IMG/VR virus record: IMGVR_UViG_2541047835_000006
DNA: 32,535 nucleotides
Strand: one strand, 5' to 3'
DNA from: a virus
Lineage: Duplodnaviria > Heunggongvirae > Uroviricota > Caudoviricetes
Position numbers and translations under genes: made by a program. Positions 2,517 through 10,645 of the stretch are shown piece after piece; position 1 is the first letter of the stretch; every line of letters starts with the position of its first letter. The notes beneath the pieces were generated by a model that searched no databases, was not told the DNA's origin, and saw only the letters and a program-made list of their open reading frames with translations.

Positions 2517-2570
2517 GGGGGCAGTATTGCCCCTGTGCGGGAACGCCGATATTAAAGGCGTTTAAGAAGG

Positions 2571-4452: not shown

Positions 4453-5336
4453 CACACACTCCTCGCCAGAATTTTGGCTGCCATGGTGCTTAACCCCGGC
4501 GACATACGGGTGAAGGTGGTGCTGGCGGAGTTAAGCTGCCCGGAAACGGCATCCAGCGCCGCTGCGATATTGCTGCCGTCCACGCCGCTCAGTGAAGACT
4601 GTGCCTGTTGTACATACGTGGCCGCATCACTGGTGGCTCTGGCCAGACTGATGGCATCAGGCATGGATTCAGAAAGCGCATTAAATGCCGGAACGCTTTG
4701 ACCCAACGCCCCGGACACGTTGCCCAGCCCGCTCATCAACCCCGGTACGCGGGTCAGTGCAACGGCGGGGTTATCCTTCATTTTCTGCGCCACCCGAACG
4801 GCACTGATGGTGGTCTGGAGAACAGACTGCGCCTGTTTGGCGTAGTTGACGCCGTCGCGGACGTACTGCGCTACCCCGGAAGGTGAAGGAACGGCACCGG
4901 AGACCGCCCCGACGCCGGGAACCTGCGTGCGTATTGCGGGTGGCTGTAGCGGGTTTTTCGGGTCGCCGATGTACTCCCGGAGAGACGCGGTGGCATTGAC
5001 GGCCAGCACGTTGCCGGTGCTGTCGGTCTGCTCGCTGGTCGCAGTAACATCGGTAATCACGAACCAGCCGCGATAGTCACCGTTGCCGAAGACCAGCGCC
5101 AGCGCTTGATGGGCCTTCATGGCCGTTCGCAGTCTCGCCAGCTCCACGTCGGGCACACAATAGTGCTGATGGAAGACCAGGCTTATCTGGATTTCGTCCA
5201 GCTTATCGCCAACGAACTGCAGGCCGGGCTTACCCTCGATACGGGGATGCTCCGCATAATCGACGCCGAACGTGACCTCGAAGCCGTCCCAGTAGGTAAT
5301 CAGTTCAAACTCAATATCACCCAATACTGCAAACAT
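4452..5336 (-). CDS. Tail protein, P2 gpU-like N-terminal domain with C-terminal extension
   Basis: 294 aa; N-terminus MFAVLGDIEFELITYWDGFEV... resembles gpU; ATG overlaps tape-measure stop (ATGA). Confidence 0.6.
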   Translation of the reverse strand: MFAVLGDIEFELITYWDGFEVTFGVDYAEHPRIEGKPGLQFVGDKLDEIQISLVFHQHYCVPDVELARLRTAMKAHQALALVFGNGDYRGWFVITDVTATSEQTDSTGNVLAVNATASLREYIGDPKNPLQPPAIRTQVPGVGAVSGAVPSPSGVAQYVRDGVNYAKQAQSVLQTTISAVRVAQKMKDNPAVALTRVPGLMSGLGNVSGALGQSVPAFNALSESMPDAISLARATSDAATYVQQAQSSLSGVDGSNIAAALDAVSGQLNSASTTFTRMSPGLSTMAAKILARSV

Positions 5337-7801
5337 CAGCTGTACCTCCTGCGTTGTTGCTGAGCCAGCAGACGCTCCAGCATTTTCTCCAGCTCATGCA
5401 GGCTCATATTCAGTGCGCCGGTCAACCCGTCAGGCGCTGCGGTTTCTTTGCCATTGAGGAAAAACTGAGGATTAAAGCTGACCTGGATACCGCCAGATGT
5501 TCCGCTGCCAGTTGCAGCTGCGCCACGACCTGAATATCCCGCCGCCATGATTTCCGGCGACGGGATACGGGGAACATCCGGTGTCATTTCAGTGGCCAGA
5601 CGCTGCCCGGCCAGTGCAGCAAGTGGTGTGGTGCGCTGCAGGCCGATAGCGGCCCCCTGCGCAATGTTGTCACCAAAGCCAATAAACACACGGCTCGGCG
5701 AATGAATGCCCAGCTTTTCCTTAAACCAGCCGCCAACACTGTCGCCCATGTCTGTGACGGTAGTTTTGAGCGACTCCCATTTGTTTTTGATGCCGTTTAT
5801 TAACCCGTCGATAAGATGGCCACCGAAGTCGGTGAACTTCGCTGGCAGATCAACACCGAGGTATTTCAGCGCAGCCGCAAAGGCTTTATAGAGCAGACCA
5901 ACCGGCGACCAGTTAATCAGCAGCTTACCAATCCCCACGACACCGCCATTAAACGCCTCTTTAATGTCAGCCCAGCGCTGTTTAAACCAGCTACTGACTG
6001 CGCCCCAGTTGCGATAAATAAGGTAAGCTGCTGCCGCGACGGCGGTGATGGCGAGACCAATGGGATTCATCAGCAGCGCCCGGCCAATCCAGAGAACGGC
6101 CCGCCCGGCGATCATAATGCCGCGAACCAGCCCACCTGACAGTACACCACCCAGTGTTCTGGCTCCTCTGGCGACGGCGCTGAAGCCGGTCACCAGCCAG
6201 CGGAGCTTACCGCCTTCACCGAGTGCAAGCGACAGTCGAAGCCAGTTGGCCCGCAGTAAAACGGCATTTTTCCAGACGTTAACAAAGGGGGAAATAAGGA
6301 GATTCAGCCCCAGCTTGAGACCGATAGTGGCCATCTTGAAAGCGAGTAATGCTCCTACAACCTTTATGGTGCCGCTGACGATTTGCGGGTTTGCCGCTAT
6401 CCATTTGCCGACACTGTCCATTAAAGGAATAAAAGTCTCACCCAGTTGGATCAAGGCCGGGCGTAGTGACTCACCAATGCTGATGGCTGCCTCGTTAAAA
6501 CCAATCTGAGTTCTGCGCCAACGACCTTCGAGCGTATTATTTTGTTTTGCAGCATCCTTATCCAGCGTAGACATTGCTGACGGGGTATTCATTTCCTGCT
6601 TGCTGGAAAGGTATTTATCCCAGCCCTGACGCATTGACAGTAAATGGTTAACGGTCTGAATATCAGTGAAGACTTCTGCCAGACCAAATGACTCCATTAG
6701 CTTCTGCTGGCCTTCCTGATCGCCTCTTGAGCCTGCTGCTTTCCATTGCTGTAAAAACGCCTTACCTTTACCGTCGATAAAACGGTTGGCAATCATCAGT
6801 GAGGCTTCATACTGTGAGAAGCCCTGAGCGACGTAATTCTGCATTGACCCCTGGTAATCCACCCCGGCTTTAGCATATTTCTGGATGGTATCTCCGCGCC
6901 CCATCGCCGCCAGCCAGTTTGACATATTGGTGACGGCCTCTTCCGCTGAGCCGCTGCCTTTACCAACTTCCAGACTGGCGACGATCTGGGTTATGGCATC
7001 TTTGCCGTAAATACCACGTGCAGCGAAGGCTTTGGCCATACCAGGTAACGCTTTCGCCATATCCTTCAGTTCAAACGAGCCTAGCTTAGCCCCGGTTGCC
7101 GCAATCCCAAACGCCTGCTCCAGCTCTTTCGCATCGGTAATTTTCAGCGCATCGCTAAAGGCGTAGGTCATTTTTGCGAGGTCAGTCATATCCGCTTTGG
7201 TGGCCGTGGCCGCTTTACCGAGCATCCCGGCAAATTTAGCTGCCTGCTCCGGGTTCATACCATCGGCAACTAACTGACCAACACCCCCTAGCAGCGACTC
7301 CTGGAGCTGATTGACCTGAAGGGATGCCCGACGAATGGCAGTACCGATGGCCTGTTCCTGCCTTGAATCCAGATCACCAGTGACACTGATATCCCGCAAC
7401 TGCGATTCAAACGAGGCATATTGTTTGACTGAGGCCATGACCGGTGCACCCAGTGTTCTGACGATGGCATAGGTTTCTGCTCCCTGGCCATAGAGCGCCA
7501 TGCGGTTAGCTTTCAGCGCGTCACTGGTGGTTGATACTGCTGACAAACGGCGCTGCTGGCGCTCAATTTGCTCCATTGTGCGGCTTACCCGCAGCAGGTC
7601 GCTGTTGAGGCGCTGCATCCGGGAAGAACCCAACTGACCATAGCGTTCTGTTGCACGGGTTAAGGCGTTTTGGCGTTCCTGCAGGCGGCGCGATGTATCG
7701 CCCAGGGAATCAAGGGCGCGTCGGGTACCGCTGACGGCTGAGCGGAAGCTGCTCCCGACAATGCCGCCAATAATGACGCCGACTGAAAATTTACTGGCCA
7801 C
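5336..7801 (-). CDS. Tail tape measure protein
   Basis: 821 aa, largest tail gene, Ala/Gly-rich with hydrophobic C-terminal segments; GTG start at 7801 preceded by AGAGGA SD. Confidence 0.85.
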   Translation of the reverse strand: MASKFSVGVIIGGIVGSSFRSAVSGTRRALDSLGDTSRRLQERQNALTRATERYGQLGSSRMQRLNSDLLRVSRTMEQIERQQRRLSAVSTTSDALKANRMALYGQGAETYAIVRTLGAPVMASVKQYASFESQLRDISVTGDLDSRQEQAIGTAIRRASLQVNQLQESLLGGVGQLVADGMNPEQAAKFAGMLGKAATATKADMTDLAKMTYAFSDALKITDAKELEQAFGIAATGAKLGSFELKDMAKALPGMAKAFAARGIYGKDAITQIVASLEVGKGSGSAEEAVTNMSNWLAAMGRGDTIQKYAKAGVDYQGSMQNYVAQGFSQYEASLMIANRFIDGKGKAFLQQWKAAGSRGDQEGQQKLMESFGLAEVFTDIQTVNHLLSMRQGWDKYLSSKQEMNTPSAMSTLDKDAAKQNNTLEGRWRRTQIGFNEAAISIGESLRPALIQLGETFIPLMDSVGKWIAANPQIVSGTIKVVGALLAFKMATIGLKLGLNLLISPFVNVWKNAVLLRANWLRLSLALGEGGKLRWLVTGFSAVARGARTLGGVLSGGLVRGIMIAGRAVLWIGRALLMNPIGLAITAVAAAAYLIYRNWGAVSSWFKQRWADIKEAFNGGVVGIGKLLINWSPVGLLYKAFAAALKYLGVDLPAKFTDFGGHLIDGLINGIKNKWESLKTTVTDMGDSVGGWFKEKLGIHSPSRVFIGFGDNIAQGAAIGLQRTTPLAALAGQRLATEMTPDVPRIPSPEIMAAGYSGRGAAATGSGTSGGIQVSFNPQFFLNGKETAAPDGLTGALNMSLHELEKMLERLLAQQQRRRYS

Positions 7802-7893: not shown

Positions 7894-8151
7894 TTAATGA
7901 TTATCGCCGAACTCGCTTCTGATTTGCTCTTCAGCCTGCTCCAGCCACATCTCCAGATCGTCAGTATCGAGGGCATCAATCTCCCCCGGCTGAAATCTAA
8001 ACCACCTCGCCAGCAGCCCCTGCGCCTGCATCAGCGTTTTCGTCGCTCTTGCCCAGCCCAGTGACTTGCTGAAATCGTTTCTGCAGCTCCATGTAGTCGG
8101 CAAGATCCATATTATCGAGGTCTTCCGGAAGAATACCGGTGCTACGGGCAA
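7894..8151 (-). CDS. Overlapping ORF in +1/-2 frame; candidate frameshift extension (E'-like) of the tail chaperone
   Basis: Part overlapping E looks like out-of-frame junk (R/W/C-rich) but the ~35 codons past the E stop are protein-like and acidic (PGEIDALDTDDLEMWLEQAEEQIRSEFGDNH); slippery site not identified. Confidence 0.4.
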   Translation of the reverse strand: MPVAPVFFRKTSIIWILPTTWSCRNDFSKSLGWARATKTLMQAQGLLARWFRFQPGEIDALDTDDLEMWLEQAEEQIRSEFGDNH

Positions 8152-8311
8152 TCAGCGGCTCGTCCCAGTCAGCCGGGTCTTTACTGATTTTGCGCACCTG
8201 CTTCAGGTCTTTGACCGTCAGGCGTTTCAGTTCAACCTGCTCAACTCTGGTGCCAGCAGCGGTGGTGAAGGGGTAAGACAGCTTAAAAGTATCGGATTGG
8301 GTTTGTGACAT
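7997..8311 (-). CDS. Tail assembly chaperone (P2 gpE-like)
   Basis: 104 aa, between tube and tape measure; LKRLTVKDLKQV and DNMDLADYMELQKRF segments resemble gpE. Confidence 0.6.
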   Translation of the reverse strand: MSQTQSDTFKLSYPFTTAAGTRVEQVELKRLTVKDLKQVRKISKDPADWDEPLIARSTGILPEDLDNMDLADYMELQKRFQQVTGLGKSDENADAGAGAAGEVV

Positions 8312-8378
8312 GATCGTGCTCCTGTGTAAGTTCAGAGCAGTATGTCTGGTGGTGGGACTGGCAGATATTAAAGGGGAT

Positions 8379-8403
8379 TAAGAAGAAAGGGGCCGAAGCC
8401 CCT
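8379..8403 (-). terminator. Intrinsic terminator-like hairpin with U-tract on minus strand
   Basis: Minus-strand AGGGGC-TTCG-GCCCCT followed by TTTCTTCTT, starting 6 nt after the stop of the 8410..8694 ORF. Confidence 0.5.
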
Positions 8404-8409
8404 GTGATA

Positions 8410-8694
8410 TCAGTGAGTGCGAAAGCCTTTGCAGTTACGCAGGAAGGCGATAAGAAGTACCTTTCCTTCAGATTTGCCGATGCCGGTGAACCAGTGGTCA
8501 GGTGGCTCCCATGCCTCAATCAGGTCAGCGAGCTTTCGTGCTTTGGAGCGTGTGCAGTCAATCGGGTCATTGGTTTTCTGGGTATTAAAAAGGTTTTCCA
8601 CCCCTGAAATATCAAGGATGGTAAACCACGTACCATTCCCCATCATGCCAATCGAACCACAGTTCCCGCCTTTATCTTCAATCTCGACGGTCAC
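8410..8694 (-). CDS. Hypothetical protein (moron inserted between tail tube and tail chaperone genes)
   Basis: 94-codon ORF with GTG start; visibly lower GC than flanking tail genes; own downstream terminator; no recognised motif. Confidence 0.4.
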   Translation of the reverse strand: MTVEIEDKGGNCGSIGMMGNGTWFTILDISGVENLFNTQKTNDPIDCTRSKARKLADLIEAWEPPDHWFTGIGKSEGKVLLIAFLRNCKGFRTH

Positions 8695-8696
8695 CG

Positions 8697-9218
8697 TCAG
8701 CCCCCGATGTTGATGCGGTAGTCGGTCAACTGGTCAATGCCGCCGACGCGGAAGATGTTGGCCAGATAGTCCAGCTCCAGCAACTCTTCACCATCCAGTA
8801 CCTGCTTGATGTACGTGCAGGTGAAGCTACTGGAGAACTCGGCGTTCTCATGCTGTTTGAACGTCCCCAGCGGGTTCTTCTTAAACATGATCGTCAGGAA
8901 AGTGACCAGCGGAATTTCGTCAATCAGCCCCTGCGAGCTGTAGCGCTGAACGCTGGAACGGCACTGCAGCGCCAGCGACTTATACGGGTTCGCGGCAGAC
9001 AGCATCGCGTCGCGGTAAAAGCTGTTCCACTTGATCTCGCCCTCAAGCTTGTCGAAGCCAGCAGGGAGTTCCACCTTGCCCACCATCCCCAACGCCTTAT
9101 GCTCCTGCATGGTCATGGAGACGTCAGGCAGTTTGACCTCCTCGGCCCGGCCCAGCAGGTTAGCGCCATCCAAGTAGATGTTGGCATTCGTGATGCGGTT
9201 GATCTCAATCTTTGCCAT
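8697..9218 (-). CDS. Tail tube protein (FII / Mu M-like)
   Basis: 173 aa; C-terminus ...ANIFRVGGIDQLTDYRINIGG resembles P2 FII C-terminus; ATG overlaps sheath stop (ATGA). Confidence 0.8.
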   Translation of the reverse strand: MAKIEINRITNANIYLDGANLLGRAEEVKLPDVSMTMQEHKALGMVGKVELPAGFDKLEGEIKWNSFYRDAMLSAANPYKSLALQCRSSVQRYSSQGLIDEIPLVTFLTIMFKKNPLGTFKQHENAEFSSSFTCTYIKQVLDGEELLELDYLANIFRVGGIDQLTDYRINIGG

Positions 9219-10645
9219 CAGCTATTCCCCTTCAGGGTTAACAGGTATTCCGAGGTGATCTCGGTCTCAAACGTCAGTCGCTCCAGCGGCGGTGGCGGCG
9301 TGTATTTGTAGCTCAGCAACAGATGACCGGCGGCCAGCTCCGTCTCTTCATTACGGGCCGGATCAAACCAGCAACTGAAGCCCAGCAGTGCACCGTCGCC
9401 AATTAGCTTGCGACCGTAGGCGTTGACCGACTCCGTCAGCGCATCAATCAGTGCCTGGGTAATCGGCATGTCGATGTACTGCTGGCTGAAATAACGCAGG
9501 GACTCGTTGATAACATCACCGGTGCGGCGAACGTTCTCAAAGTTGCGCATATGGGTGACCGTTGGCCATGCTGCCGTCCGGTTGCCCCACAGACGCAGGC
9601 CGCTGCCGTAGCTGCTGAAGACCGTAGTGATGCCCTGTTCGTTGAGCAGGTTCACCTCGCTCTGCGGGTCATCAATCATTGCCGACAGCTGGCGCTCCAC
9701 GCCGGTGATACCCAGAATCTCCTGGTTGGAGGACGACCACCAGTAGCCCTTGTCCAGGTCGACCTTGGCACGCAGACCTGCAGCACGTTGGCTCAGCGGC
9801 TCCAGCCGTTCGCTGTTGGTGGCCGCGTCGTACACCTTGACGTGCGGATAGCACAGACGGACGCGGTCGGAGCTGGTATTGAAGTTAATGGTGCCTTCCG
9901 GGCCACGCCCCGCCAGAGCCTGCGCAAAAGTGGTACCAATCGGCGCGTCGATGTAGGTCACCGCGCCCAGCTTCTCAGCCATGGCGATAAGCTCAACCGA
10001 GACGCTGTTCTGGGTGCAGAATACCGGGGCAATCAGAATTTTGGCGAAGTAGCCAAACAGGTTGAAGCTGTCGTTAAGCAGCTTCATGCCGGTACGGTTG
10101 CCTGCCGCGTTAACGGTACCGATGATATCAGCCGGGGTGACTTTGGTCGGATCGGCATAGTTATAGCTGGCCTTCACCGTTGCATCTGCAGCAATGCTTT
10201 TACCAAGGTTAGTAATCACCCCGGTCTGCGCATCAAGCGAGTAGTCCTGACCTTCCACATAAGGCTGACCGTCGCTGTCCGGTTTCAGTACCAGCTGCGC
10301 GATCACCGGATTAGCCAGCTGTGCCTTGCCCGTCGCCTTGTCGAATGTTACGTCTTCATCGGCCACAGCGGTTTTATGCACAGCCGGATCAAGCACGTTA
10401 ATGACCAGAACGGTGCCTGCCCCATGGTCGTAGATCGCATCCAGTGCCTGCGGAATGGTAAAGCCAGTGAGCTGGCTGCCAAACGCCGCTGCATCTTTCT
10501 CAGACAGGCACTGCACCAGCGTATTGACGTCTCCCATTGGGGCGGTACCAATCAGGCCAATGACGGCGGATTTCACCGTTTTAACCGGGCGGGCACCGTT
10601 TTCCACCTCAATGGTTTCGACGCCATGCAGATAGTTAGCTGACAT
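9218..10645 (-). CDS. Contractile tail sheath protein
   Basis: 475 aa, immediately upstream of tube gene; GGAGG SD before ATG 10645. Confidence 0.85.
   Translation of the reverse strand: MSANYLHGVETIEVENGARPVKTVKSAVIGLIGTAPMGDVNTLVQCLSEKDAAAFGSQLTGFTIPQALDAIYDHGAGTVLVINVLDPAVHKTAVADEDVTFDKATGKAQLANPVIAQLVLKPDSDGQPYVEGQDYSLDAQTGVITNLGKSIAADATVKASYNYADPTKVTPADIIGTVNAAGNRTGMKLLNDSFNLFGYFAKILIAPVFCTQNSVSVELIAMAEKLGAVTYIDAPIGTTFAQALAGRGPEGTINFNTSSDRVRLCYPHVKVYDAATNSERLEPLSQRAAGLRAKVDLDKGYWWSSSNQEILGITGVERQLSAMIDDPQSEVNLLNEQGITTVFSSYGSGLRLWGNRTAAWPTVTHMRNFENVRRTGDVINESLRYFSQQYIDMPITQALIDALTESVNAYGRKLIGDGALLGFSCWFDPARNEETELAAGHLLLSYKYTPPPPLERLTFETEITSEYLLTLKGNS

Follow-up and report, generated by a model that had tools for sequence, protein, structure and literature searches.

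A DUF7739 gene as likely accessory cargo between the tail tube and tail chaperone genes of a BcepMu-like prophage

The 32,535-nucleotide virus sequence IMGVR_UViG_2541047835_000006, the whole of which we refer to as the window, carries on its minus strand a 94-codon open reading frame (ORF) between the genes for a tail tube and a tail assembly chaperone. Among related phages the same interval may be empty, may hold an intact or a decayed copy of this gene, or may hold other cargo. Because these four states coexist, we regard the tube-to-chaperone interval as a cargo hotspot and the gene as something other than a tail component, and it is very likely that the ORF is accessory cargo in this hotspot. 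Its product is a member of the protein family DUF7739.

The explanation that we favor, which joins hotspot cargo to an inhibitor role and which as a whole we consider to have an even chance of being correct, begins with a dispensable DUF7739 gene that would have been captured into a slot of BcepMu-like phages extending from the tube stop codon to a terminator hairpin of the phage backbone. The promoterless gene would serve as the last cistron of an abundant late sheath-tube mRNA, probably with its translation coupled to that of the tube gene. The hairpin would end or attenuate transcription after the cargo, and a promoter-like motif would then restart transcription for the chaperone and tape-measure genes. 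The resulting 10-kilodalton cytoplasmic alpha/beta protein would bind and inhibit a host or host-defense protein during lytic growth.

A variable slot in the tail region

The tube protein was used to fetch 154 related loci (identified below by L numbers), in which the tube and chaperone genes were located by tblastn, and this yielded 123 distinct intervals. An earlier reading of the window (hereafter the original prediction) had called the ORF a moron and had proposed an alignment of this interval across relatives as a check on its variable presence. The outcome is positive. The slot is empty in 36 of the 123 distinct intervals, which then measure 0-215 nucleotides, and it holds an intact DUF7739 gene in about 55. 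Decayed copies, either truncated or frameshifted, are found in about 15 intervals, an example being the C-terminal half that is all that remains in five Photorhabdus species, and 16 intervals contain other cargo. Empty slots adjoin tubes that are 97-99% identical to the tube of the window (L106, L115, L117, L119, L014, and L122). This absence beside near-identical tubes, along with the early-operon location of the family elsewhere, upholds the view of the ORF as an accessory insert and not a structural component of the tail.

The position of the gene within occupied slots is highly regular, with the start lying exactly 2 nucleotides past the tube stop codon in 38 of the 41 intervals that were scored by script as holding a single intact gene. 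Ten of the approximately 55 intact intervals have a two-gene cargo (for example L006, L007, L010, L082, L090, L095, and L100), wherein an extra 97-amino-acid gene occupies the first ~295 nucleotides past the tube stop codon and overlaps the start of the DUF7739 gene by 11 nucleotides. This upstream gene is a member of Phage_gp49_66 (PF13876, 2e-12; phrog_322), the family of N4 gp49 and Sf6 gp66. Both PF13876 and DUF7739 are represented in phage Sf6, and a faint PF13876 match lies 5 kilobases from the DUF7739 gene of an SSU5-like contig. In Pantoea stewartii ATCC 8199 (L013) the interval is 1,966 nucleotides long, and ~1.3 kilobases of additional DNA, perhaps an insertion sequence or more cargo, separate its two-gene cargo from the chaperone gene.

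Other cargo includes a ferredoxin-like protein of 109-110 amino acids in Pectobacterium (L042, L044, L046, L048, L050, and L052; phrog_844, 1e-23, with a weak Fer2 match), whose gene sits between two terminator-like hairpins, a 66-amino-acid phrog_9518 protein, and short ORFs of high guanine-cytosine (GC) content in Lonsdalea. The locus from Neisseriaceae bacterium TC5R-5 (L060:3520-4980) encodes a 296-amino-acid CdiA-CT RNase A toxin (PF18431, 1e-31) and then a CdiI_2 immunity protein (PF18593, 1e-17). This toxin-immunity pair lies within a phage tail cluster, with both genes downstream of the first terminator hairpin.

The prophage block is present in 640 of 5,426 complete Escherichia coli genomes, including sequence type ST131, with 634 of the 640 at 80% coverage or more, so that it is both common and stable in this species, and it also occurs across Enterobacterales. 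An 8-kilobase contig labeled Arthrobacter sp. GMC3 (NZ_PJIO01000028.1; L015 and L143) carries the enterobacterial prophage block with a tube that is 96% identical, and its actinobacterial label probably reflects assembly contamination.

The ORF is a genuine gene under purifying selection and not a chance reading frame, with a median ratio of nonsynonymous to synonymous substitution rates (dN/dS) of 0.087 over 1039 ortholog pairs from 51 distinct intact orthologues at the tube-to-chaperone locus. Its GC content had been described as visibly lower than that of its neighbors, and this was borne out by a value of 0.498 versus 0.575 ± 0.033 for 285-nucleotide windows of the late region (2nd percentile). 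At third codon positions (GC3) the value is 0.558, compared with 0.65-0.82 in most late genes. The low GC content is thus real, though the difference is modest. The tube gene itself has a GC3 of 0.816, far above all other measured late genes (0.58-0.72), a value that may reflect codon bias linked to very high expression.

The relevant tail genes, which are of the P2/Mu type and run along the minus strand of the window, and the elements between them are listed below in the direction of transcription.

9218 to 10645, minus strand: tail sheath gene (phrog_23, 5e-140, and Phage_sheath_1)
8697 to 9218, minus strand: tail tube gene of the P2 FII type, flanking the cargo slot on its upstream side (Phage_tube FII, PF04985, 4.8e-54)
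8701 to 8705, minus strand: GGGGG run resembling a Shine-Dalgarno sequence, within the last tube codons and 6 nucleotides upstream of the GTG start (direct sequence reading)
8410 to 8694, minus strand: accessory ORF of 94 amino acids, DUF7739/phrog_1239, with a GTG start and a TGA stop at 8410-8412
8379 to 8403, minus strand: intrinsic-terminator-like hairpin with a T-rich tail, a backbone feature of the tube-to-chaperone junction (terminator scan, folding energy, conservation)
8338 to 8374, minus strand: promoter-like motif CCTTTAATATC-N20-ATACTG, downstream of the hairpin and upstream of the chaperone gene (pattern count and relatives)
7997 to 8311, minus strand: tail assembly chaperone gene of the P2 E/Mu gp41 type, the downstream flank of the slot (Phage_TAC_7, PF10109, 6.8e-23)
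7894 to 8151, minus strand: overlapping ORF, a likely frameshift extension E' (weak Phage_P2_GpE match and a phrog_8286 match)
5336 to 7801, minus strand: tape measure gene

The placement of the ORF between a tube and a chaperone gene, as had been proposed, is confirmed by the Phage_tube FII and Phage_TAC_7 matches on its two sides. The tube stop codon occupies 8697-8699, and the ORF begins 2 nucleotides past it. We consider the GTG start to be correct because homologues align from residue 1 (MTVE/MSVE...), and the GGGGG run that precedes it suggests that translation of the ORF is coupled to that of the tube gene. The overlap of the ORF at 7894-8151 with the chaperone gene agrees with the programmed -1 frameshifting by which tail chaperone genes usually yield an E+E' product, which is the likely arrangement here; in relatives the name given by the Prokaryotic Genome Annotation Pipeline (PGAP) is 'GpE family phage tail protein'. 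Phage PhiKM, classified as a Bcepmuvirus, is 87% identical in nucleotide sequence across the region, and the window also encodes an rve-type transposase, a holin, and P2-type baseplate genes. On the basis of this identity and gene set, we assign the window to a BcepMu-like transposable prophage.

A backbone hairpin and a candidate late promoter

The original prediction also held that the gene is followed within 6 nucleotides by its own intrinsic terminator. The first part of this statement is accurate. The sequence AGGGGC-UUCG-GCCCCU (8403 to 8388) starts 6 nucleotides past the ORF stop and is followed by TTCTTCTTAA, and the hairpin has a free energy of -11.8 kcal/mol (z = -2.97 versus shuffles). 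Ownership by the gene, however, does not survive the comparison with relatives, since hairpins occupy this same site where the interval is empty and also where it holds unrelated cargo. Each sequence was scanned individually, as the stems differ in length, and a hairpin with a T-run satisfying the same thresholds was found in 114 of the 123 distinct intervals, empty ones included, while the nine intervals that lack it are the shortest and come from distant relatives. The relatives exhibit 35 distinct stems, such as GGGGGCC-GCAA-GGCTCCC, GGGAGC-CTTACC-GCTCCC, GCGAGGGGCC-TGGT-GGCCCCTTGC, and AGGGAGAGA-CGGCGA-TCTCTCCCT.

Several additional observations concern the relationship between hairpin and cargo. 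First, in Enterobacterales relatives the hairpin keeps a distance of 65-95 nucleotides on the upstream side of the chaperone start, in empty and filled slots alike. Second, the identical AGGGGC-TTCG-GCCCCT sequence is also present in empty Pectobacterium intervals, and its GGGGC-TTCG-GCCCC core lies downstream of the cargo in Pectobacterium intervals that hold the ferredoxin-like gene (L042). Third, DUF7739 genes in other phages have no following hairpin, and in Sf6 the next gene begins 1 nucleotide later. Intervals of the DUF7739 class carry their cargo upstream of the hairpin, and L042, L052, L058, and L060 have cargo downstream of a first hairpin. The element thus has the GC-rich stem and U-run characteristic of intrinsic terminators, in a structure that is kept in relatives, and it is from this sequence pattern that a role in termination is proposed. 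Because the structure is kept while the sequence drifts, we interpret the hairpin as a functional terminator or attenuator of the phage backbone, one that would act on the sheath-tube unit and is not owned by the cargo gene.

No sigma-70 consensus site was found between positions 7500 and 9500, and a relaxed scan of the minus strand from 8680 to 9000, which accepted 8 or more of 12 matches, gave no promoter upstream of the ORF. Thus, in these in silico scans, a gene that begins 2 nucleotides past the tube stop codon exhibits no promoter of its own. Given the lack of a sigma-70-like promoter upstream, the ORF most likely rides on the abundant late sheath-tube mRNA, in which the sheath gene is presumed to be the upstream member of a sheath-tube-cargo transcription unit.

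A promoter-like motif does exist on the other side of the hairpin. The sequence CTTCTTAA-N3-CCTTTAATATC-N20-ATACTG at 8338-8374 lies between the hairpin and the chaperone gene, and the pattern CCTTTAATATC-N15-30-ATACTG has exactly two copies in the window, compared with 0.00 expected by chance. The second copy (2522-2558, minus strand) is located between the baseplate V-type and W/gp25-type genes; the spacing is N20 or N21, and CTTCTTAA precedes each copy. The ATACTG of the second copy is just 5 nucleotides before the ATG of the W-type gene, an arrangement that could give rise to a leaderless mRNA. A relaxed form of the motif, TTTAAWA-N17-27-AYACTG, occurs in 91 of the 123 distinct intervals. 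The motif has a -10-like hexamer (CATACT/AATACT), no -35 element, and conserved sequence from about -30 to -55, a geometry that we take to resemble that of activator-dependent late promoters of the Mu C/Mor type. Both copies are therefore candidate activator-dependent late promoters, and the copy at 8338-8374 would serve the chaperone/tape-measure unit. The layout suggested by these patterns is [sheath-tube-cargo]-terminator-[promoter]-[chaperone, tape measure...].

These observations alter two elements of the original prediction. The term moron is apt with regard to variable presence and atypical composition, and fails with regard to autonomous expression, given that no promoter was found and that the terminator is that of the backbone. 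The location 'inside the tail operon' is likewise doubtful, since the hairpin and the promoter-like motif downstream of it suggest that one transcription unit has the slot at its 3' end. There is also a lesson here for annotation, in that a terminator following a gene need not signify a self-contained moron.

The DUF7739 family and its possible function

The product had been described as having no recognizable motif, whereas it in fact belongs to a catalogued family. It matches phrog_1239 ('unknown function') at 2e-43, with residues 1-94 aligned to a profile of 96 positions, and this significant full-length match places it in DUF7739. The direct Pfam match to DUF7739 (PF24881) falls under the gathering threshold (18.2 vs 27 bits), and PF24881 is annotated on relatives that are 82-84% identical to the product. 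From the sub-threshold score, the 94-amino-acid protein represents a divergent subgroup of the family. A profile made from the product and seven relatives, including Sf6 gp22 and the homologues from EPP-1 and fHe-Yen8-01, gathers 182 proteins; of the 120 that were listed, most carry PF24881. An exhaustive phmmer search gave just 52 clusters at 50% identity, and so the family is small. Its named members come from Enterobacterales (Plesiomonas included) and from one Vibrio metagenome-assembled genome. Residues D7, N20, T22, W23, G31, D43, W62, P65, W68, F84, L85, C88, G90, F91, and R92 are invariant or nearly so. An identical protein is present in the database as WP_021544464.1, under the name 'hypothetical protein'. 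The homologue in Yersinia phage fHe-Yen8-01 (L004:4001-4309) is labeled 'particle associated protein', as are a DNA methyltransferase and a giant ART-PolyVal ADP-ribosyltransferase nearby; the label could not be verified, and no paper was found on this phage to back it.

The genomic contexts of the family in other phages bear on its function. The DUF7739 gene of Sf6 (gp22), HK75 (gp27), CUS-3, and a Plesiomonas prophage resides in the early-left operon, where its neighbors include genes for Abc2, Erf/RecT, SSB, RdgC, Kil, CIII, and Lar-like proteins. Phage EPP-1 carries it between rdgC and the integrase gene, with a repressor gene upstream, and true Mu-like prophages of Klebsiella carry it in the early region between Gam and GemA/Mor. 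In the SSU5/pHCM2-like phage-plasmids (L167 and L168), it lies between an N6/N4 methyltransferase gene and the gene for a 2,400-amino-acid ART-PolyVal protein. These neighborhoods are where temperate phages keep functions for host takeover, DNA-end protection, and anti-restriction. Because the family sits in such regions, the most likely mechanism is that of a small inhibitor. By analogy, then, the product may be a small protein-binding inhibitor involved in host takeover or counter-defense, an assignment that we make tentatively and rate at somewhat below an even chance. The broader proposal of an anti-defense, exclusion, or host-fitness role is plausible.

A structural model is consistent with a small soluble protein. 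AlphaFold2, given a 66-sequence alignment, returned a confident model of β-β-α-β-α-α-β topology with a predicted local distance difference test score (pLDDT) of 90.7 and a predicted template modeling score (pTM) of 0.83. The highest-ranked Foldseek matches were DMP12, CdiI, and YfbM, with E-values that are not significant, and a structure search of BFVD returned only uncharacterized proteins. We therefore describe the model as a predicted soluble alpha/beta protein with a DMP12/CdiI/YfbM-like fold. The maximum Kyte-Doolittle value for a 19-residue window is 0.82, indicating that there is no hydrophobic segment. The protein is nearly neutral, with an isoelectric point (pI) of 6.06 and 12 acidic residues to 11 basic ones, and the family as a whole has a median pI of 8.5 with no member below 5. 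Sequence identity to Neisseria DMP12, Burkholderia CdiI(E479), and E. coli YfbM is 9-11% (9% for DMP12). Unlike these structural neighbors, the product is non-acidic, and no toxin gene adjoins it in the contexts examined. An immunity function, suggested by the CdiI match, was rejected for want of an adjoining toxin gene.

Three points weigh against the inhibitor account. There is no sequence-level link to any characterized inhibitor: NCBIfam and PDB sequences gave no match to the product, the latter whether searched with the single sequence or with the family profile, and the best PADLOC match (PDC-M18B, E = 0.041, 11.8 bits) is not significant, such that no known anti-phage defense family was recognized. 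Moreover, expression is proposed to be late here, whereas most of the other contexts imply the opposite, early expression, and so the argument from timing is not uniform. Finally, the roles given to the terminator and the promoter are read from sequence patterns alone.

Among the alternatives, the product might be a defense or exclusion factor that is expressed in the lysogen and shields the host from other phages, as does Tab of phage JBD26. Tab sets a precedent for a small late-operon protein of a Mu-like phage (PMC10884400), the slot of one relative (L060) holds a toxin-immunity pair, and the gene is kept in at least 634 of the 640 E. coli genomes that have the prophage block. We nevertheless judge this alternative unlikely. 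No sigma-70-like promoter occurs within 300 nucleotides upstream, even at 8 of 12 matches, and the start is only 2 nucleotides past the tube stop codon. In most other phages the family belongs to early operons of the pL or Mu type, and lysogens keep such operons repressed. The protein is also soluble and has no membrane segment, unlike many exclusion proteins.

A protein that is made late, loaded into the virion, and delivered with the DNA for counter-defense as soon as the next infection begins, in the manner of P1 Dar or polyvalent proteins, would account for co-expression with the sheath and tube at the time of packaging, as inferred from gene position, and would agree with the 'particle associated protein' label of the fHe-Yen8-01 homologue and of the proteins around it. 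The basis of that label could not be checked, the early position of the gene in lambdoid and Mu phages is a poor fit with packaging, and the model suggests no capsid- or tail-targeting signal, all of which leaves this alternative quite improbable.

If the product instead assisted tail assembly, or were a minor component that only this type of tail has, the position of its gene between the tube and chaperone genes and the co-expression with both would be explained, and yet we consider this very improbable because the gene is absent beside 97-99% identical tubes (L106, L115, L117, L119, and L014), is decayed in about 15 intervals, and belongs to a family that siphoviral, podoviral, and Mu-type phages carry in early regions of a non-structural kind; it is neither conserved with the same tail nor confined to tail modules. 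The idea of a DNA mimic that, like Neisseria DMP12, titrates a nucleoid protein such as HU was prompted by the structural match and was rejected on charge, given that DNA mimics imitate DNA by a DNA-like negative surface charge (PMC3384305), whereas the pI values and residue counts given above are far from strongly acidic and identity to DMP12 is 9%; this, too, is very improbable.

Inhibition of a host or host-defense protein thus continues to be our preferred function for the product. A more far-reaching proposal is that DUF7739 comprises unrecognized small phage inhibitors that are deployed early in lambdoid and Mu phages and late in BcepMu-like and perhaps SSU5-like phages, possibly loaded into virions, and that the slot is an undescribed hotspot that can be mined. 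In this full form we consider the proposal doubtful.

Comparison with known systems

Like classical morons, in the sense established for HK97 and HK022 (Juhala 2000; Cumby 2012), the ORF is an extra gene that is absent from some collinear relatives, has a GC content below that of its surroundings, and lies in the late structural region. Morons are defined as autonomously expressed modules (quoted in 10.1101/2024.10.15.618418). Classical morons are autonomous in this manner, whereas the 94-codon ORF has no detected promoter and is followed by a terminator belonging to the backbone.

Tab has 83 residues and falls into no known family; its gene is part of the late operon of JBD26, and it blocks the tail assembly of invading phages (PMC10884400). 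Both Tab, from a Pseudomonas Mu-like phage, and the 94-amino-acid product are small (about 80-95 residues), have no annotated domain, and come from a gene inserted into a transposable phage's late operon. The Tab gene lies between terminase genes and provides defense from the integrated prophage, whereas there is no indication that the 94-codon ORF is expressed from a prophage.

The closest relatives are the DUF7739/phrog_1239 proteins themselves. Sf6 gp22 and HK75 gp27 exhibit full-length homology to the product, family lengths of 93-102 amino acids, and the common motifs NGTW, WxPPxxW, and FLRxCxGFR. Their genes reside in the early-left operon, or in the Mu early region, whereas the 94-codon ORF resides at the end of a late sheath-tube unit. 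A literature search on DUF7739 and phrog_1239, limited in the range that it covered, found no paper. With the prophage block so common among complete E. coli genomes, the gene represents a conserved unknown that is widely distributed and kept under strong purifying selection. Should its DUF7739 family turn out to consist of counter-defense or host-takeover inhibitors, it would be one more such family.

Fixed hotspots in which phages carry accessory genes are already known, the anti-CRISPR loci of Pseudomonas Mu-like phages being one example. The P2-like hotspots are old/tin, Z/fun, and a third beside the CI regulator gene (Rousset 2022, as reviewed in 10.1101/2024.10.15.618418). As in the present case, these are fixed slots that exchange diverse defense or accessory cargo within the genome of a myovirus with a P2-type tail. 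The tube-to-chaperone slot, between FII-type and E-type genes, does not coincide with any of the P2 hotspots described, and its cargo consists mostly of single small genes of unknown function. No paper on this slot was found in the limited range of literature covered, and so it is apparently undescribed. If our interpretation is correct, it also flags a hotspot that is easily recognized by a tube stop codon, cargo that can include toxin-immunity genes, and a backbone terminator.
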